Shown here in pieces: positions 1 to 7,570 of a stretch of DNA of 7,570 nt. The position numbers and the translations under genes were made by a program. The first letter of the stretch is position 1, and each line of letters opens with the position of its first letter. The DNA comes from a virus (taxonomy: Duplodnaviria; Heunggongvirae; Uroviricota; Caudoviricetes). The notes beneath the pieces were generated by a model. That model saw nothing but the letters and a program-made list of their open reading frames with translations, was not told the origin of the DNA and made no database searches. The stretch is from positions 1 through 7,570 of the IMG/VR virus record IMGVR_UViG_2585427790_000004; one strand, 5' to 3'.

Positions 1-93
1 GCACTGGCGCTCGGGCGTCGTGCGATTGGCGTTGAACTGGAGACCGGACGTTTTGAGCAGACAGTCAGGGAAGTTCAGGATTTAATCGTTTGA
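1..93 (+). CDS. 3' end of an ORF entering from upstream (5' partial); C-terminus resembles a beta-class DNA N6-adenine/N4-cytosine methyltransferase
   Basis: Frame 1 is open from position 1 to TGA at 91-93 and translates to ALALGRRAIGVELETGRFEQTVREVQDLIV*. The A-x-x-G-R-R-x-I-G-x-E pattern resembles the segment after the FxGxG AdoMet motif near the C-terminus of beta-class methyltransferases. Only 30 residues are visible, so the family call is tentative. Confidence 0.4.
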   Translation, partial: ALALGRRAIGVELETGRFEQTVREVQDLIV

Positions 94-104
94 AACGGAT
101 GATA

Positions 105-133
105 TTGAAGAATTAATTACGCGTCGTTATTAT
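105..133 (+). promoter_or_regulatory. sigma70-like promoter for the tRNA cluster
   Basis: TTGAAG at 105-110, a 17-bp spacer, then TATTAT at 128-133; the first tRNA begins at 143, about 9 nt downstream. Confidence 0.5.
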
Positions 134-142
134 GCGGCTCCC

Positions 143-218
143 GGCCCTTTAGCTCAGTGGTGAGAGCGAGCGACTCATAATCGCCAGGTCGCTGGTTCAA
201 ATCCAGCAAGGGCCACCA
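143..218 (+). tRNA. ileZ: tRNA with CAU anticodon, most likely tRNA-Ile2 (lysidine type) rather than tRNA-Met
   Basis: Cloverleaf read by hand: acceptor GGCCCTT (143-149) pairs with AAGGGCC (208-214), discriminator A, encoded CCA at 216-218; D stem GCTC/GAGC; anticodon loop CTCATAA; T loop TTCAAAT. Closely resembles E. coli ileX as I recall it. The symbol follows the 933W naming from memory. Confidence 0.85.
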
Positions 219-225
219 TCACATA

Positions 226-302
226 CCGCCATTAGCTCATCAGGATAGAGCGCCAGCCTTCGAAGCTGGTTGCGCGGGGTTCGAGTCCTCGATGGCGGTC
301 CA
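226..302 (+). tRNA. argN: tRNA-Arg (anticodon UCG, reads CGA/CGG)
   Basis: Acceptor CCGCCAT (226-232) pairs with ATGGCGG (292-298), discriminator T, encoded CCA at 300-302; D stem GCTC/GAGC; anticodon stem CCAGC/GCTGG with loop CTTCGAA (anticodon TCG at 260-262); T loop TTCGAGT. Unusual C1:G72 first pair. Starts 7 nt after the previous tRNA. Confidence 0.8.
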
Positions 303-315
303 TTATCTGTACCCT

Positions 316-392
316 GCGTTGTTAGCTCAGCCGGACAGAGCAATTGCCTTCTAAGCAATCGGTCACTGGTTCGAATCCAGTACAACGCGCCA
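316..392 (+). tRNA. argO: tRNA-Arg (anticodon UCU, reads AGA/AGG)
   Basis: Acceptor GCGTTGT (316-322) pairs with ACAACGC (382-388), discriminator G, CCA at 390-392; anticodon stem ATTGC/GCAAT with loop CTTCTAA (anticodon TCT at 350-352); T loop TTCGAAT. Resembles E. coli argU. Confidence 0.88.
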
Positions 393-406
393 CACTTATT
401 TTCCCT

Positions 407-432
407 GGCTCGCTTTTGCGGGCCTTTTTTTT
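407..432 (+). terminator. rho-independent terminator after the tRNA cluster
   Basis: Stem GGCTCGC (407-413) / GCGGGCC (418-424) with one G-U pair, loop TTTT, followed by a run of 8 T (425-432). Confidence 0.7.
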
Positions 433-627
433 AAATGTCTCACAATTCAGACGGTTGACTGTTGTCTGGTTGGCGGGGAGTTTGTTAAAAGAAACTGGCA
501 TGGTGAATCCCCCTGTGCGGAGGGGCAATCAGCGAGTAGGTATATGGGATAATCGCGGATTCAGGTGCTGGTACTGAATTCACCGGGAGGCACCCGGCAC
601 CATGCAATGGCACATAGCGCCACTCTC

Positions 628-662
628 CAGCCCCTCTCCGGAGGGGCTGTTTATATTGATTT
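628..662 (+). terminator. rho-independent terminator-like hairpin
   Basis: Perfect 9-bp stem CAGCCCCTC (628-636) / GAGGGGCTG (641-649), loop TCCG, followed by the T-rich tract TTTATATTGATTTT. It lies just before the convergent end of the minus-strand ORF at 684. Confidence 0.5.
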
Positions 663-683
663 TGTCAGATGTGAGTAAACTGC

Positions 684-1019
684 TTATGGACTTTGTTGTT
701 TTAGCCCATAAGGACATATTTGCAGAGTGCAACGGTTATTAAAGCATTCATTCAATACGTTATCTGTATTTGTAGGGCATTCCTGGCTGTTTTTGATTAA
801 ATTCCAGAATGTTTTATTGAATGGTACTACGTTGTAAATGGTTACAGGTAGCACTTTGTTATTGAGCATGATGCCTGTGTGAGTCAGTGTAAATATACTT
901 TCAGGAGGTAAGAAAGCATCCGATTGATACCAGATTATTAATTTTATTTTACTCCATATGACTGAAAAAGATATTCCGCATGATGGCTGGATAACTGTAT
1001 CAATCACAATCCACTTCAT
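684..1019 (-). CDS. hypothetical 111-aa protein in an AT-rich island, no family recognised
   Basis: Open frame of 111 codons in very AT-rich DNA, where stop codons are frequent. Good Shine-Dalgarno AAGGAA 6 nt upstream of the ATG (complement of 1017-1019). A candidate sigma70 promoter lies upstream on the minus strand (TTTACA / TATACT, complement of about 1060-1086). The protein ([22 protein letters not shown]...) matches nothing I know. Confidence 0.4.
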
Positions 1020-1279
1020 TTAGTTTCCTTGTTTATGCCTTGCTGGTGATGTTCTGAAAAGTATAAATGATATTTTTGATTGTAAACCATAGAGCAGAAT
1101 TATTTTTCTGATGTTGTTTATTGTTTATTTAAATGCAGGGTGGTTTATATCTCGTCTTGTAGTTTATCCATGCATATCTGCTTGATGATGAGGTTTTTAT
1201 TTAAGGTATGGTTTTGTGTTTTTTCTGTATTACATGTCAGGTATTTTAAAGAATCATTTTTCAGATGGTGGAAAGAACC

Positions 1280-3136
1280 ATGGCATTTAAACACTATGAT
1301 GTTGTCAGGGCGGCGTCGCCGTCAGATCTTGCGGAAAAGCTGACACATAAACTGAAAGAGGGCTGGCAGCCGTTTGGTAGTCCGGTGGCCATAACCCCTT
1401 ATACCCTGATGCAGGCGATTGCAGCAGAAGGTGATGTGGTGGTCAGTGGTGCAACTGAGCCGGATTGGTACTACGTCATCGTACTGGCCGGGCAGTCCAA
1501 TGCCATGGCTTACGGTGAAGGGCTTCCGCTGCCGGATTCATACGATGCGCCCCATCCGCGCATTAAGCAACTGGCCCGTCGTAACACAGTGACTCCCGGT
1601 GGTGAAGTATGCGTATTTAACGACATCATTCCTGCTGACCATTGTCTGCATGATGTTCAGGATATGAGTACGATTAACCATCCCCGGGCTGACCTGAGCA
1701 AAGGGCAGTACGGCTGTGTCGGACAGGGCTTACATATTGCCAAAAAACTGCTTCCGTATATCCCGAATAACGCGGGGATCCTGCTGGTACCATGCTGTCG
1801 TGGTGGTTCGGCATTCACCCAGGGCGCGGAGGGGACATTCAGTGCGGACACGGGGGCCAGCCAGGATTCGGCACGCTGGGGTGTGGGTAAACCGTTATAT
1901 CAGGACCTGATCGCACGCACCAAAGCGGCATTACAGAAGAACCCGAAAAATGTGTTGCTGGCGGTGTGCTGGATGCAGGGCGAATTTGACATGAGCGCTG
2001 CCACCTACGCACAGCAACCGGACCTGTTCACGGCCATGCTGAAGCAGTTCCGTACTGACCTTTCCGGATTTAACGCGCAGTGCCATGGCGGCAGTGCTGC
2101 AGTTGTACCGTGGATTTGTGGCGACACGACGTATTACTGGAAAAACACATACGGCACACAGTATGACTCCGTCTACGGCGCGTACAAAAACAGGGAGAGC
2201 GACAACGTTTTCTTTGTGCCGTTCATGACCGACGGTAACGGCAACAACACGCCCACCAACTTACCGGCAGAAGACCCGGATATTGCTGATGCAGGTTATT
2301 ACGGCGCGCAATCCCGTAGTAATGGTAATTGGGTATCGTCAAATCGTCCGACACATTTCAGTTCATGGGCGCGCAGGGGCATTATTTCGGATCGCCTGGC
2401 AACCGCTATTCTGAACGCAGTTGGTCGAACCAGCGCCTTCATCAGCGGTACCGCACCGGAGATTAAACCCTCGCCCGGCGGCGACACGCCATCGGGGCCG
2501 TCTGATGGTGACACATCCGTTCGTACAGTCTCCCTGCTGCCGACAGCCGGAGAGGCTGCTGCGCAGGGCTGGACCATCACCGGCGGCAGTGTTGCGCTGG
2601 AAGATGGTGTGTTTAAGGTTACCAAGCAGAGCAATAAAACCTGGTCCCTGATGCATCCGGTGGATGACGCAGTCTCCCTGCTGACACGGGGTGGCAGACT
2701 GAGCTGTAAGTTTCGACTGTCAGGCGCACTGATCAACAACCAGTTCGGTCTGGGAATTTATCTGTATACCGATGTAGCGTTACCTGACGTCGTGGCGATG
2801 ACCGGGACTGGTAACCCGTTCCTGATGTCGTTCTTCACCCAGACCACAGACGGCAAACTGAATCTGATGCATCACAGGAAAGCAGGAAACACAAAGTTGG
2901 GCGAGTTCGGGAATTACAGTAACGACTGGCAGACGCTGGAGCTGGTGTTCACCGCCGGCAGTGCCACGGTTACTCCGAAACTGAATGGAGTGGCTGGCCC
3001 GGCATTCCAGGTCATAAAAGACAGTCTGACACTGGGGCTGAATGCGCTGACGCTGACGGATATTACCAAAAATGCAGCGTATGGCGTTGAGATAGAAAGT
3101 CTGGTGCTGGAGATAAATGCACCGGCATCATCATAA
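1280..3136 (+). CDS. nanS-p: prophage sialate 9-O-acetylesterase (NanS-p-like, SASA/DUF303 family)
   Basis: Long ORF (1265..3136 in the ORF track). Contains the GQSN block (VIVLAGQSNAMAYGEG) typical of SGNH-type sialate O-acetylesterases, and sits between the tRNAs and the holin as nanS-p does in Stx phages. Start placed at ATG 1280 (MAFKHYDVV...) because GGTGGAAAG precedes it; the in-frame ATG at 1265 has no Shine-Dalgarno. Confidence 0.85.
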   Translation: MAFKHYDVVRAASPSDLAEKLTHKLKEGWQPFGSPVAITPYTLMQAIAAEGDVVVSGATEPDWYYVIVLAGQSNAMAYGEGLPLPDSYDAPHPRIKQLARRNTVTPGGEVCVFNDIIPADHCLHDVQDMSTINHPRADLSKGQYGCVGQGLHIAKKLLPYIPNNAGILLVPCCRGGSAFTQGAEGTFSADTGASQDSARWGVGKPLYQDLIARTKAALQKNPKNVLLAVCWMQGEFDMSAATYAQQPDLFTAMLKQFRTDLSGFNAQCHGGSAAVVPWICGDTTYYWKNTYGTQYDSVYGAYKNRESDNVFFVPFMTDGNGNNTPTNLPAEDPDIADAGYYGAQSRSNGNWVSSNRPTHFSSWARRGIISDRLATAILNAVGRTSAFISGTAPEIKPSPGGDTPSGPSDGDTSVRTVSLLPTAGEAAAQGWTITGGSVALEDGVFKVTKQSNKTWSLMHPVDDAVSLLTRGGRLSCKFRLSGALINNQFGLGIYLYTDVALPDVVAMTGTGNPFLMSFFTQTTDGKLNLMHHRKAGNTKLGEFGNYSNDWQTLELVFTAGSATVTPKLNGVAGPAFQVIKDSLTLGLNALTLTDITKNAAYGVEIESLVLEINAPASS

Positions 3137-3220
3137 AAAGTGAGCCAGTCAAATGGAAGGTATCGTTAAACTCACCGGTAGTGTCAGTGGGTCGTCTGAG
3201 ATGCCTGCATGAGTTATCAG

Positions 3221-3252
3221 AGCCATCAGTACTTAACTGGTGGCTTTTTTTA
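3221..3252 (+). terminator. rho-independent terminator between nanS-p and the holin
   Basis: Stem AGCCATCAG (3221-3229) / CTGGTGGCT (3237-3245) with one G-U pair, loop TACTTAA, followed by six T and TAT. Confidence 0.6.
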
Positions 3253-3286
3253 TTGTTGTCAGCTTCCGGATAACGGGAGACGGGGT

Positions 3287-3502
3287 ATGTACCAGATGGA
3301 AAAAATCACAACAGGTGTGTCATACACCACGTCAGCGGTGGGAACGGGCTACTGGTTCCTGCAGTTGCTGGACAGGGTTTCCCCGTCTCAGTGGGCGGCA
3401 ATAGGCGTGCTGGGGAGTCTGCTGTTTGGGTTGCTGACATATCTGACTAACCTGTATTTCAAAATCAGAGAGGACCGTCGTAAGGCGGCGCGGGGAGAGT
3501 AA
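3287..3502 (+). CDS. S: class II holin (phage 21 S-like, 71 aa)
   Basis: [71 protein letters not shown]: two transmembrane segments and a charged C-terminus, near-identical in layout to the S21 holin as recalled. GGGAGA Shine-Dalgarno 6 nt upstream. Met1 and Met4 give a dual-start motif. The track ORF from 3209 is an unsupported N-terminal extension. Confidence 0.85.
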
Positions 3503-3506
3503 AGCG

Positions 3507-3851
3507 ATGAAGAAAAAATACGAACTGGTTGTTAAAGGGATAAATAATTACCCGAATAAGATTACTGTTACTGTGGCACTGGAAATTGGTGGGTATCCGT
3601 CACTGTTGTTGCCAGATGTGGCGATTAGTCTTGACCGTACTGAAGATGCCACGCTGGAGTTTTACGAAGCTGAGGCGAAAAAGCAGGCGAAGCAGTTTTT
3701 CATGGATGTTGCTGCCGGGTTATGTGAAGGGGATGGTCCGTTGCCGGAAAAGCGCCCCGTAATTTTAGAGGCGCAGGATGTGTTGATAACCTACAGAGGA
3801 AAACTACCGGGAATAATTACTGGTTCTCTGAAGACTCCACCGCTGGCCTGA
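3507..3851 (+). CDS. 114-aa protein of unknown function, probably DUF1327 (YdfR-like)
   Basis: Begins 5 nt after the holin stop and lies between holin and endolysin, the position of ydfR in the Qin prophage as I recall. The family assignment is from memory of similar proteins, not a search. Confidence 0.65.
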   Translation: MKKKYELVVKGINNYPNKITVTVALEIGGYPSLLLPDVAISLDRTEDATLEFYEAEAKKQAKQFFMDVAAGLCEGDGPLPEKRPVILEAQDVLITYRGKLPGIITGSLKTPPLA

Positions 3852-3901
3852 AGACTTAACATATCCAGGGATTTGAAATCGATAAACCCTGATAAATATC
3901 C

Positions 3902-4435
3902 ATGAACACCAAAATCAAATACGGCCTGTCGGCTGCCGTTCTGGCGCTGATTGCCGCAGGTGCGCCTGCGCCTGAAATCCTCGACCAGTTTCTGGATGAA
4001 AAGGAAGGTAACCACACCACGGCATACCGTGATGGCGCGGGTATCTGGACCATCTGCCGCGGTGCCATCCTGGTGGATGGCAAACCTGTCGTTCCGGGCA
4101 TGAAGTTGTCGAAGGAAAAATGCGACCGGGTTAACGCCATTGAGCGTGATAAGGCGCTGGCATGGGTGGAGAAAAACATCAGAGTGCCATTGAGTGAACC
4201 CCAGAAAGCGGGGATCGCGTCATTCTGTCCGTACAACATTGGCCCCGGTAAGTGTTTTCCGTCGACGTTTTATAAACGAATTAATGCAGGTGATCGCAGG
4301 GGAGCGTGTGAGGCGATTCGCTGGTGGATTAAGGACGGTGGCAGAGACTGCCGTATTCGCTCAAATAACTGTTACGGTCAGGTATCCCGTCGTGACCAGG
4401 AGAGCGCGCTGGCGTGCTGGGGAATCGACAGATAA
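3902..4435 (+). CDS. R: SAR endolysin (phage lysozyme, GH24 / T4-lysozyme fold)
   Basis: N-terminal Gly/Ala-rich weakly hydrophobic segment (MNTKIKYGLSAAVLALIAAGA) typical of signal-anchor-release endolysins, followed by the catalytic E-x8-D-x5-T spacing (EGNHTTAYRDGAGIWT). 177 aa. Confidence 0.9.
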   Translation: MNTKIKYGLSAAVLALIAAGAPAPEILDQFLDEKEGNHTTAYRDGAGIWTICRGAILVDGKPVVPGMKLSKEKCDRVNAIERDKALAWVEKNIRVPLSEPQKAGIASFCPYNIGPGKCFPSTFYKRINAGDRRGACEAIRWWIKDGGRDCRIRSNNCYGQVSRRDQESALACWGIDR

Positions 4436-4525
4436 GCAGAATATTTTGCTAATCAATGACGTTGGCCAAGGCGGACGGATAACACGAAATCCTGCGAACT
4501 GGCAAAATGTAAGTGAATAAAAGTA

Positions 4526-4558
4526 AAAACCCCGTTTGTTGGCTGCAAGCGGGGTTTT
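4526..4558. terminator. bidirectional terminator-like hairpin in the R-Rz gap
   Basis: 9-bp stem AAAACCCCG (4526-4534) / CGGGGTTTT (4550-4558) around a 15-nt loop; T-rich sequence follows on both strands. The large loop makes strength uncertain. Confidence 0.35.
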
Positions 4559-4633
4559 GTGTTTCCTGACTCTGGAAAAGTCAAAGGAGAAAGTGTGTTT
4601 GATTTTAGCAAACTGATTCGGGAGATTCGAGTG

Positions 4634-4732
4634 ATGGCTGGAAAATTATCCACCTGGAAGTTCATTCTTATCTGGCTGGTGTTTGTGATTATGGCCTCCG
4701 GTTATTTCATCGGTCAGATACGCTGGTGGTGA
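4634..4732 (+). CDS. possible 32-aa single-pass membrane peptide (alternative GTG start at 4595 gives 45 aa)
   Basis: Not in the ORF track because it is too short. ATG 4634 to TGA 4730-4732 encodes MAGKLSTWKFILIWLVFVIMASGYFIGQIRWW with a hydrophobic core. GGGAGA lies 8 nt upstream of the ATG, and AGGAG lies 5 nt upstream of the GTG at 4595. Its stop is 1 nt from the Rz start (TGAAATG). Confidence 0.35.
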   Translation: MAGKLSTWKFILIWLVFVIMASGYFIGQIRWW

Positions 4733-4733
4733 A

Positions 4734-5201
4734 ATGAACCGCGTACTGTGCGTGGTCATCATTGCCCTGCTGGTGGCCTGTGGTGCGCTTAGTCTGGGGC
4801 TGAATCATTACCGTGATAACGCCATAACCTACAAAGAGCAGCGCGATAAAAAAGTCAGTGAGCTGGAGCAGGCAAATGCAACCATTACTGATATGCAGCA
4901 GCGCCAGCGTGATGTTGCTGCACTTGATGCCAGATACTCGAGGGAATTAGCCGATGCGAGAGCTGAAAATGAAACTCTGCGCGCTGACGTTGCCGCTGGT
5001 CGTAAGCGCCTGCGGATCAACGCCACCTGCCCCGGTACCGTGCGTGAAGCCCCCACCACCTCCGGCGTGGATAATGCAACCGGCCCCCGACTGGCAGACA
5101 CCGCTGAACGGGATTATTTCACTCTCAGAGAGCGGTTGATGCTGACGCAGAAGCAGCTGGAAGTGGCGCAGGAATATATCCGCACTCAGTGCCTGAAATA
5201 A
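4734..5201 (+). CDS. Rz: Rz inner-membrane spanin (i-spanin)
   Basis: N-terminal transmembrane segment (MNRVLCVVIIALLVACGALSL) followed by a charged, coiled-coil-like periplasmic domain; position after the endolysin; 155 aa. Confidence 0.9.
   Translation: MNRVLCVVIIALLVACGALSLGLNHYRDNAITYKEQRDKKVSELEQANATITDMQQRQRDVAALDARYSRELADARAENETLRADVAAGRKRLRINATCPGTVREAPTTSGVDNATGPRLADTAERDYFTLRERLMLTQKQLEVAQEYIRTQCLK
4954..5139 (+). CDS. Rz1: Rz1 outer-membrane lipoprotein spanin (o-spanin), embedded in Rz in the +1 frame
   Basis: MRELKMKLCALTLPLVVSACGST...: lipobox LVVSAC and a proline-rich mature region (CVKPPPPPAWIMQPAPDWQTPLNGII) very like lambda Rz1 as recalled; wholly inside Rz. Confidence 0.85.
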   Translation: MRELKMKLCALTLPLVVSACGSTPPAPVPCVKPPPPPAWIMQPAPDWQTPLNGIISLSESG

Positions 5202-5229
5202 GTTTTGCTGATGCGCGGTATTGTCGCCG

Positions 5230-5294
5230 TATCCCCGCATTAACAGAGACCGCAGCCCGACCGGGAGACTCCTCTGCGCGAGTGTGCGGGGATA
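5230..5294. repeat. long imperfect palindrome at the Rz / tail-fibre junction
   Basis: TATCCCCGCA (5230-5239) is the exact reverse complement of TGCGGGGATA (5285-5294); inside are nested pairs CAGAG/CTCTG and CCCG/CGGG. No T-run follows. Confidence 0.5.
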
Positions 5295-5295
5295 A

Positions 5296-6742
5296 TCAAA
5301 AACGATACACACCGGGGTTTCTGCAGCAAAAACCTCTGAAACAAATGCAAAGACTTCAGCAGATAATGCTGCTTCCTCTAAGGCGGCAGCCGCATCGTCA
5401 GCCAGTTCAGCGGCGTCATCGGCATCATCTGCGTCTGCTTCAAAAGATGAGGCGACCAGACAAGCGTCAGCAGCGAAAGGTAGTGCCACGACAGCAACAA
5501 TGAAAGCATCAGAGGCAGCTGGTAGTGTGACGGCGGCAGCTCAGAGCAAAAGTACGGCGGAATCCGCGGCAACGCGCGCCGAGACAGCAGCAAAACGGGC
5601 AGAGGATATTGCATCCGCCGTGGCGCTGGAGGATGCGAGCACGACGAAAAAGGGGATAGTACAGCTCAGCAGTGCGACCAACAGCACTTCCGAGTCACTG
5701 GCGGCAACGCCAAAAGCGGTTAAGGCGGTAATGGGTGAAACGAACAAGAAAGCGCCCTTAAATAGTCCTGCACTGACCGGAACGCCAACAACACCAACTG
5801 CGCGACAGGGAACGAATAATACCCAAATCGCAAGCACGGCTTATGTTATGGCTGCGATCGCTGCCCTCGTGGACTCGTCGCCTGACGCACTGAATACGCT
5901 GAACGAGCTGGCTGCGGCGTTGGGCAACGACCCGAATTTTGCGACCACCATGACTAACGCGCTTGCGGGTAAGCAACCGAAAGATGCCACCCTGACGGCG
6001 CTGGCCGGGCTTGCTACTGCGGCAGACAGGTTTCCGTATTTTACGGGGAATGATGTTGCCAGTCTGGCAACCCTGACAAAAGTTGGGCGGGATATTCTTG
6101 CGAAATCGACCGTTGCCGCCGTTATCGAATACCTCGGTTTACGAGAACTCGGCACAAGCGGGGAGAAAATACCGTTACTCAGTACAGCGAATACCTGGAC
6201 TAATCGACAAACATTCAGCGGTGGCCTTTCTGGTGAACTATCCGGCAATGCTTCTACAGCTGCAAAATTAAAAACTGCCAGGAAAATAAGCAATGTGGCT
6301 TTTGATGGTTCCTCCGATATCACATTAAAAGCAAGTCATGTTGGTGCGTTTGCCTTAGGGAAAACAGGAAGCACCGTTGCGAATGATAAAGCAGTTGGAT
6401 GGAACTGGAGTAGCGGAGCCTATAACGCAACTATTAGTGGTGCATCAACGTTAATTATTCATTTTTATATGGGAGAAGGAAGTTGTCCTGCAGTTCAGTT
6501 TCGGATTAATTATAAAAATGGCGGTATTTTTTATCGTTCAGCCCGTGATGGTTATGGTTTTGAAGCCGACTGGTCCGAATTTTACACCACCACCAGAAAA
6601 CCTTCAGCAGGAGATGTTGGTGCACTGCCGTTATCTGGTGGTCAACTGAATGGTGCACTGGGTATCGGAACATCCAGTGCTCTTGGCGGTAATTCGATTG
6701 TATTGGGTGATAATGACACGGGCTTTAAACAAAATGGCGATG
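5296..6742 (+). pseudogene. side tail fibre (Stf-like) gene fragment, missing its 5' end and cut at its 3' end by the IS
   Basis: The frame of track ORF 5500..6903 is open back to the TAA at 5293-5295 with no start codon before 5500, and already encodes Ala/Ser-rich fibre repeats (ETNAKTSADNAASSKAAAASS...). It continues with GIVQLSSATNSTSESLAATPKAVKAV and ...LGDNDTGFKQNGD, typical of lambdoid Stf and T4 gp37-type fibres. After GD the frame runs into IS sequence at 6743. Confidence 0.8.
6122..6147. other. gix/hix-like DNA-invertase crossover site inside the tail-fibre gene
   Basis: TTATCGAATACC TC GGTTTACGAGAA: two 12-bp inverted half-sites around a 2-bp core; its reverse complement matches the Mu gixL site as I recall it (TTCCTGTAAACCGAGGTTTTGGATAA) at 22 of 26 positions, with the central AAACCGAGGTTT identical. 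Confidence 0.5.
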
Positions 6743-7570
6743 TGAACCGCCCCGGGTTTCCTGGAGAGTGTTTTATCTGTGAACTCAGGCTGCCAGATCA
6801 TCGTTTCCGATGGAAGCATAATAAGCTTTTTCTGCTTCTGCCGGAGGAGTATGGCCCAGCCTTTCCAGCAATCGTCGATTGTTATACCAGTCCACCCACG
6901 TGAGTGTGGCCAGTTCCACTTCTGCACGGTTTTTCCAGCTCTTACGGTGTATTACCTCCGCTTTGTAAAGACCATTGATGCTCTCCGCCATCGCGTTGTC
7001 ATACGAGTCGCCTGTACTTCCTGTTGATGCCAGTAATCCGGCTTCCTTAAGCCGCTGTGTGTAGGCCAGCGATACATACTGAGAACCTTTATCACTGTGA
7101 TGGACCGTGCCGGACGGTCGACGGGCCCATAACGCCTGCTCCAGTGCATCCAGCACGAATGTCGTTTCCATGGACGATGAGACCCGCCACCCCACGATGT
7201 ATCCGGCAAACACATCAATGATGAACGCCACATAGACGAAGCCCCGCCATGTGCTGACGTAAGTAAAATCAGCCACCCACAGCTGGTCAGGTCGTTCTGC
7301 CACGAACTGACGGTTTACGCGGTCGCCTGCGACAACGGCTTTCCGGCTGATGGTCGTACGGACCTTTTTACCCCGGAGAACACCGGCAAGTCCCATAACC
7401 GCCATGAGACGTGCCACAGTGCATCTGGCCACTCTGATACCTTCCCGTAACAACTGACGCCAGACTTTACGCACACCGTATACCTTGTGATTTTCATCGT
7501 ATACGCGCTGTATCTCTTTCTTCAGCCAGTCATCGCGCTGCGCACGGGCACTGCGTTTATCCGGATGATG
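6743..7570 (-). mobile_element. IS3-family insertion sequence (IS629-like), 3' part; continues beyond the window
   Basis: The tail-fibre frame breaks at 6743, where a terminus beginning TGAACCGCCCCGGG starts (IS3-family ends are 5'-TG...CA-3'). The transposase OrfB stop lies about 40 bp inside that end. Confidence 0.8.
6785..7570 (-). CDS. IS3-family transposase OrfB (DDE integrase domain), N-terminus beyond the window
   Basis: Track ORF 6785..7474 plus an open in-frame extension to 7570 (...HHPDKRSARAQRDDWLKKEIQRVYDENHKVYGV RKVWRQLL...). DDE-type blocks are present: LWVADFTY, HHSDKGSQY, YDNAMAESINGLYKAE. Matches IS629/IS1203-type OrfB from memory. Confidence 0.9.
   Translation of the reverse strand, partial: HHPDKRSARAQRDDWLKKEIQRVYDENHKVYGVRKVWRQLLREGIRVARCTVARLMAVMGLAGVLRGKKVRTTISRKAVVAGDRVNRQFVAERPDQLWVADFTYVSTWRGFVYVAFIIDVFAGYIVGWRVSSSMETTFVLDALEQALWARRPSGTVHHSDKGSQYVSLAYTQRLKEAGLLASTGSTGDSYDNAMAESINGLYKAEVIHRKSWKNRAEVELATLTWVDWYNNRRLLERLGHTPPAEAEKAYYASIGNDDLAA

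Follow-up and report, generated by a model that had tools for sequence, protein, structure and literature searches.

Organisation of the locus

The window, that is, the whole 7,570-nucleotide stretch of DNA analysed here, carries part of the late region of a lambdoid prophage, in which the final 93 nt of a DNA methyltransferase gene, three tRNA genes, the small RNA STnc100, the anti-adaptor gene iraL and a nanS-p-type esterase gene follow one another (Table 1). The order read in the original prediction (methyltransferase tail, tRNA-Ile, two tRNA-Arg, a gap, nanS-p, S, R and Rz) is indeed found. The position that it gives for stxAB also agrees with the 933W record, which reads ileZ-argN-argO-terminator-stxA2-stxB2-SASA esterase-S-R-Rz. 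The methyltransferase remnant was aligned with the gene of FDAARGOS_536, which occupies positions 7652-8701 of that locus, so that position 1 of the window corresponds to 8609. The tRNA with the CAT anticodon is annotated as tRNA-Ile/ileZ by PGAP and in the 933W record (FDAARGOS_536, CFT073, 933W), and a homologue of the terminator behind the tRNA cluster is labelled in 933W as 'possible rho-independent terminator upstream of the stx genes'. The esterase is of the NanS-p type, with a length of 618 or 623 amino acids for a start at 1280 or at the alternative position 1265, respectively. Downstream of it follow a class II holin, a YdfR-family ORF, a lysozyme and Rz. A gap of ~300 bp between the lysozyme gene and Rz (4436-4733) contains only a 57-aa ORF (4559-4732, plus strand) and is unannotated in FDAARGOS_536 too.

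Table 1. Coordinates of the features in the left part of the window, with the evidence on which each one was placed.
Feature	Position	Strand	Evidence and remarks
3′ end of a prophage DNA methyltransferase gene	1..93	+	Stop codon 91-93; aligns with the end of WP_000935516.1
tRNA with CAU anticodon, ileZ-type tRNA-Ile2	143..218	+	ARAGORN (calls Met); Rfam tRNA, 72.5 bits
tRNA-Arg (UCG; TCG)	226..302	+	ARAGORN; Rfam
tRNA-Arg (UCU; TCT)	316..392	+	ARAGORN; Rfam
Intrinsic terminator closing the tRNA cluster, GGCTCGC-TTTT-GCGGGCC, then T8	407..432	+	Terminator scan
Empty Shiga-toxin insertion point (slot A)	434..435	.	BLASTN breakpoints against 933W and phage 1717
STnc100 sRNA (Rfam RF02076), including terminator hairpin 628-649 and T-rich tail	469..658	+	cmscan
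iraL coding sequence, 111 aa, IraM-family RssB anti-adaptor	684..1019	-	Identity with CFT073 IraL
iraL 5′ leader, 33 nt; transcription start at 1052	1020..1052	-	Match to published 5′-RACE
iraL sigma-70-type promoter: -35 TTTACA (1086..1081), 17-nt spacer, -10 TACTTT (1063..1058)	1058..1086	-	Read upstream of the mapped start
AT-rich region upstream of iraL, ending at the start codon of nanS-p; forms the right border of the cassette	1087..1279	.	Composition (GC 0.29 over 1053-1279)
nanS-p-type SASA carbohydrate esterase	1280..3136	+	Pfam DUF1737, SASA, DUF6645; PGAP 'SASA family carbohydrate esterase'

No coding sequence for a Stx A or B subunit is present, as originally stated: searches by tblastn with Stx1A, Stx1B, Stx2A and Stx2B gave a best E value of 0.79 across the whole window. 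The abrupt drop in GC content is equally real, from 0.56 to 0.29-0.35, the values being 0.558 for 469-658, 0.348 for 684-1019, 0.291 for 1053-1279 and 0.549 for nanS-p. The part previously described as hairpin-rich can be resolved into two terminator-like hairpins, one at 407-424 that precedes a run of T and one at 628-649 that precedes a T-rich tail, and the multi-helix STnc100; a scan detected three terminator-like hairpins, compared with 0.7 ± 0.9 in shuffled sequences. The original prediction overlooked an ORF of 111 aa encoded by the minus strand (684-1019).

The right part of the window contains tail-fibre and IS sequences. Genomes that are 100% identical over positions 1-5320 diverge beyond them. 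The stretch 5319-6742 is 99.7% identical to an internal part of a 'prophage tail fiber N-terminal domain' gene, and since it lies inside a tail-fibre gene, the genes from terminase to tail are missing. An IS3-family element that begins at ~6743 (orfB 6785..7474, minus strand) cuts short the tail-fibre ORF at 5500-6903. The window as a whole is found in no complete E. coli genome of the collection, and the IS-truncated tail-fibre fusion ORF is not on record. The prophage is defective, with its structural genes deleted and an IS present, and iraL is untouched. Loss of the structural genes together with the IS implies that the phage context is no longer functional.

The iraL moron and the STnc100 small RNA

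The minus-strand ORF encodes a protein identical in 111 of 111 residues to IraL of the UPEC strain CFT073 (WP_000871291.1). It passes the NCBIfam model NF007393 (IraM), whose cut-off is 121 bits, with a score of 162 bits over residues 1-110 of the 111, and it matches the IraM chain of PDB entry 8twd over residues 1-78 (E = 9e-32). Identity to K-12 IraM amounts to 62%; the published value for IraL and K-12 IraM is 58.9% (PMC4045071). By the published rule, which assigns genes to iraL at an identity of at least 95% over the whole coding sequence (PMC4045071), the protein of the window is an IraL. Within the IraM/IraL family, dN/dS values of 0.10-0.17 indicate purifying selection. The identity of the cargo is not new, as iraL has already been characterised: IraL of CFT073 interacts with RssB and stabilises RpoS in log phase, and its gene was located on the potB island (PMC4045071).

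[quoted passage not shown] 2014, mBio, PMC4045071). This sequence matches the minus strand of the window at 1052..1021 in 31 of 32 bases, a match that was found in 0 of 200 shuffles, and the sole mismatch lies in the leader, 3 nt before the iraL ATG. The match at 1052 leaves a 33-nt leader before the ATG at 1019, in agreement with the '+33' limit of the published complementation fragment (PMC4045071). Sigma-70 -10 and -35 elements were predicted for iraL (PMC4045071), and the hexamers upstream of the mapped start in the window document the presence of a promoter sequence, not its activity. A consensus scan does not return the RACE-supported promoter because its -10 hexamer fails the scan rule. 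Conservation of the regulatory region upstream of the gene is 96% or higher across iraL strains (PMC4045071). A small plus-strand ORF at 1140-1343 has no match in Pfam. At the other end of the gene, the terminator scan detected no intrinsic terminator on the minus strand 3′ of iraL, only the STnc100 hairpin in reverse, which is devoid of a U tract.

STnc100 is recognised by cmscan over the full Rfam model (positions 1-206) with 133.1 bits, compared with a gathering score of 47 (E = 1e-30). Compensatory changes occur in 9 of the 38 consensus pairs among 12 copies from related loci; the z-score of the single-sequence minimum free energy is modest (-1.98). The small RNA is located directly 3′ of stxB in 933W, 75/02 Stx and phage 1717, and a distance of 75 nt downstream of stx2 has been reported (PMC12370729). 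STnc100 is a conserved part of the backbone, which in Stx phages stands immediately 3′ of stxB. For its function only hypotheses have been put forward (PMC12370729). The consensus scan of positions 380-1300 returned no plus-strand promoter for STnc100, and STnc100 could either be transcribed from a promoter of its own that departs from the consensus or result from processing.

Two further observations concern the surroundings of this RNA. Directly upstream of STnc100, positions 436-468 form a conserved block (GTCTCACAATTCAG.C.GTTGAC.GTTG.CTG) that is shared with 933W, phage 1717, Nil3 and CFT073; it contains a TTGAC motif resembling a -35 element, for which the consensus scan found no matching -10 element. 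In related genomes, PGAP annotates an incomplete 'hypothetical protein' pseudo-CDS at 488-613 on the minus strand, which is wholly antisense to STnc100. The ORF (485-613) has no match in Pfam, and the pseudo-CDS is probably an annotation artefact.

The AT-rich part of the segment (~620 bp) is a moron, and a known one. The term is used here in the sense of Juhala et al. 2000, as cited in PMC4104026, and the AT-rich part fits it in being poor in GC, running against the late operon, having its own promoter and occupying a slot whose content varies; a dedicated terminator, which the definition also includes, did not turn up in the terminator scan. GC content is 0.33 over 659-1279, compared with 0.56 in STnc100 and 0.55 in nanS-p. 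The slot between STnc100 and nanS-p measures 621 bp here and 199-221 bp in 933W, 75/02 and PPwrbA, and the sequences are unrelated. This AT-rich DNA was probably acquired horizontally.

The segment is not unusual: at least 80% of the 887 bp is present, and annotated, in 1,428 of 5,426 complete E. coli genomes, i.e., about a quarter. At least 15 of these copies are 100% identical, and the genome records carry the annotation 'anti-adapter protein IraM'. Such a wide and annotated occurrence in stx-negative prophages is the outcome by which the original prediction was to be refuted. Four phage records derived from induced prophages contain the segment as well, and so does E. albertii, where the protein is identical; IraL-type genes convergent to STnc100 are found in E. 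albertii, E. coli ECMA0423 and CFT073. Positions 393-1279 are a known module, common among the stx-negative lambdoid prophages that E. coli, Shigella and E. albertii carry. Published work already covers iraL, STnc100 and the tolerance for morons of the region downstream of PR′.

Two cargo positions in the late region

The position of the toxin genes relative to this module can be read from BLASTN alignments with Stx phages. Window positions 1-433 align with the tRNAs and terminator of 933W (locus 2979-3412) at 90.8% identity, and positions 436-606 align at 71.6% with locus 4745-4926, which begins 42 bp after the stxB2 stop codon. These breakpoints define the stx2AB cassette (~1.33 kb) as a clean indel at window 434/435. 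In the Stx2c phage 1717, window 112-433 corresponds to locus 2600-2914 and window 436-1696, at 69% identity, to locus 4248-5528; the alignment is colinear, and the two blocks are separated by 1,333 bp of stx2c. Nil3 and PPwrbA_EH2201 are continuous across 434/435, like the window. The toxin insertion point (slot A) is therefore empty here, and iraL lies one slot further on, between STnc100 and nanS-p.

This second position, slot B, extends from the STnc100 terminator to the ATG of the esterase gene, and iraL is placed in it on the strand opposite to the late operon, convergent with STnc100. The other occupants of slot B are likewise encoded on the minus strand, namely AsxR in 933W (Rfam, 88 bits), an AgvB-like RNA in 75/02 Stx and an IraM-like gene in phage 1717, and the order of plus-strand STnc100, minus-strand cargo and esterase is common to these three phages. 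Homology of the window to 933W, 75/02 and PPwrbA resumes exactly at the start of the esterase gene (1279/1280). The late region thus has two cargo positions, one for the toxin upstream of STnc100 and one for anti-sRNA or anti-adaptor cassettes downstream of it on the opposite strand. Because these positions are separate, the absence of stx does not mean that the neighbouring AT-rich DNA has replaced it.

Both slots vary among related prophages. Slot A is polymorphic in prophages carrying iraL: phi-potB of CFT073 contains a 642-bp insert with a DUF3927 ORF (locus L010, 2567-3208), which replaces window 405-427 including the tRNA terminator, and vB_EcoS-640R1 and E. albertii carry a second, diverged STnc100 copy that is ~73% identical to the first (L002, 5562-5755; L011, 3826-4019). 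The slot after STnc100 is occupied in the stx-negative Nil3 (L005, 6146-6200) and PPwrbA_EH2201 (L003, 4734-4790) by a different element, encoded on the minus strand and equipped with a strong terminator (reverse complement of AAAAAAAGCCCGCGCAGGGAGACGCGGGC). No Rfam family is recognised in it at gathering score, and it may be another anti-sRNA-like gene.

Three other explanations of the segment were weighed. It is very improbable that the window represents a former Stx prophage from which stxAB was lost by precise deletion, the segment being the scar of this loss. The homology of both flanks of 434/435 to the flanks of the stx2 cassette would suit such a history, as would the fact that some Stx phages carry an IraM-family gene in slot B, but tblastn detects no stx remnant in the window, and the cassette is not flanked by direct repeats that would favour precise excision. 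The junction T8-AAAT-GTCTCACAATTCAG is also present in Nil3, and the continuity of PPwrbA_EH2201 at this point argues in the same direction. Identity between the iraL module and its counterpart in Stx2c phages is no higher than ~69-75%, which makes the former an old, independent lineage rather than something recently derived from the latter.

Very improbable, too, is the view taken in the original prediction, according to which the stx cassette was swapped for a different, possibly novel moron in the Shiga-toxin slot. What stands of it is the Stx-converting lambdoid phage backbone, which is toxin-free and carries an AT-rich block of moron-like composition; what does not stand is the location in the toxin slot, and the segment is both common and annotated. 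The stx genes map upstream of STnc100, whereas the cargo lies downstream on the other strand and is the known iraL, and both slots are filled in phage 1717 and in an Stx2k phage, which contain stx2AB together with an IraM-like gene. The colinear alignment with phage 1717 refutes the swap on positional grounds. The joint presence of stx2c and the IraM-like gene in this phage shows that toxin and anti-adaptor are not alternative cargoes.

It is hardly credible that the AT-rich region functions mainly through a so far unrecognised small RNA of the anti-sRNA type, with the 111-aa ORF secondary or decaying: AsxR in 933W and the AgvB-like RNA in 75/02 Stx do occupy the slot on the same strand, and Nil3 and PPwrbA have their own minus-strand element with a terminator there, but the ORF is intact, under purifying selection and identical to a functionally demonstrated protein, and the models of AsxR and AgvB (RF02703 and RF02702), both of which match 933W and 75/02 Stx, have no Rfam match at E <= 1 in positions 1-1500, and blastn-short yields only chance matches of 7-9 nt.

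A broader idea is speculative and on balance unlikely: the interval between STnc100 and nanS-p might be a dedicated and recurrently reused slot for minus-strand cassettes that antagonise global regulators of the host. The occupants so far known comprise anti-sRNAs directed against FnrS or GcvB (AsxR, AgvB) and anti-adaptors directed against RssB (IraL and the IraM-like variant of Stx2c phages), all of them convergent with STnc100. As iraL lacks a terminator, transcription of the gene might run on antisense into STnc100, which might couple the levels of the two RNAs.

The anti-adaptor variant of the Stx2 phages is a third type within the IraM family. It comprises 107 aa and is 75% identical to IraL and 65% to K-12 IraM. 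In 41 Stx2 phage records, mostly of Stx2c but also of some Stx2a and Stx2k phages, it is found in slot B together with stx2 in slot A. Its gene is located at 4503-4826 on the minus strand in both phage 1717 (L008) and phiSTEC1575-Stx2k (L009), directly behind stx2B and STnc100 in the opposite orientation; it is usually labelled hypothetical or left unannotated. Within the literature searched, no paper on iraM-family genes in Stx phages was found. The gene could link toxin phages to the control of RpoS. The additions made here are modest; they consist of the description of the two slots and of this distinct, mostly unannotated IraM-family gene of Stx2c phages.

Proposed function and comparison with known systems

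The locus is very probably explained by an iraL moron that stands beside STnc100 and serves lysogenic conversion through stabilisation of RpoS, with the toxin insertion point unoccupied. In the lysogen, the Q-dependent late operon would be silent and iraL would be transcribed from its own sigma-70 promoter, starting at 1052. IraL would then bind the adaptor RssB and stop the delivery of RpoS (sigma-S) to ClpXP. RpoS would thereby be protected from degradation in log phase too, with a stronger general stress response as the result; this would constitute the lysogenic-conversion function. The identity and positions of the elements, their prevalence and their relation to Stx phages are established in the present analysis; the transcription start, RssB binding and RpoS stabilisation are taken from work on the identical CFT073 protein (PMC4045071; see also PMC7157518). 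By analogy with CFT073, the protein probably acts on RssB and RpoS in the same way in this strain.

Among the closest known systems is the IraL locus of CFT073, which also lies in a lambdoid prophage and shows the same succession of three tRNAs, STnc100, minus-strand iraL, DUF1737/nanS-p, holin, YdfR and lysozyme. It differs from the window by the 642-bp DUF3927 insert between the tRNAs and STnc100, by an IS200C after Q and by a truncated nanS-p, whereas it is the window that has lost the structural genes. In the literature, iraL is assigned only to the 'potB genomic island'; it can now be placed precisely in the late region of a lambdoid prophage.

K-12 IraM is a PhoPQ-induced anti-adaptor that acts under Mg2+ starvation. 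It belongs to the same family as IraL and has the same target, RssB (PMC4045071), but the similarity between the two genes is limited to the coding sequence (71% at the nucleotide level). The flanks are unrelated, and K-12 iraM is located next to e14 with no STnc100 beside it. Because the similarity is confined to the coding sequence, the PhoP-dependent regulation of K-12 iraM is not transferable to iraL. IraL and IraM are reported to differ in regulation and in the mode of interaction with RssB (PMC4045071).

In Stx phages, convergent sRNAs have been described 3′ of stx2B (Tree et al. 2014, PMC4104026). The pair formed by STnc100 and AsxR or AgvB (PMC4104026; PMC12370729) resembles the window in the position and orientation of STnc100 and in the convergent minus-strand cargo upstream of nanS-p. 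However, the cargo of the pair is an anti-sRNA of 51-60 nt, compared with the ~620-bp protein-coding cargo found here, and the window has no stx upstream. In the Stx2c phages 1717 and 2851 and in the phage phiSTEC1575-Stx2k, the tRNA block recurs and window 436-1696, with STnc100, a minus-strand IraM-family gene and nanS-p, has a colinear counterpart, but stx2AB fills the point left vacant in the window, and the anti-adaptor homologue of these phages is the 107-aa protein.
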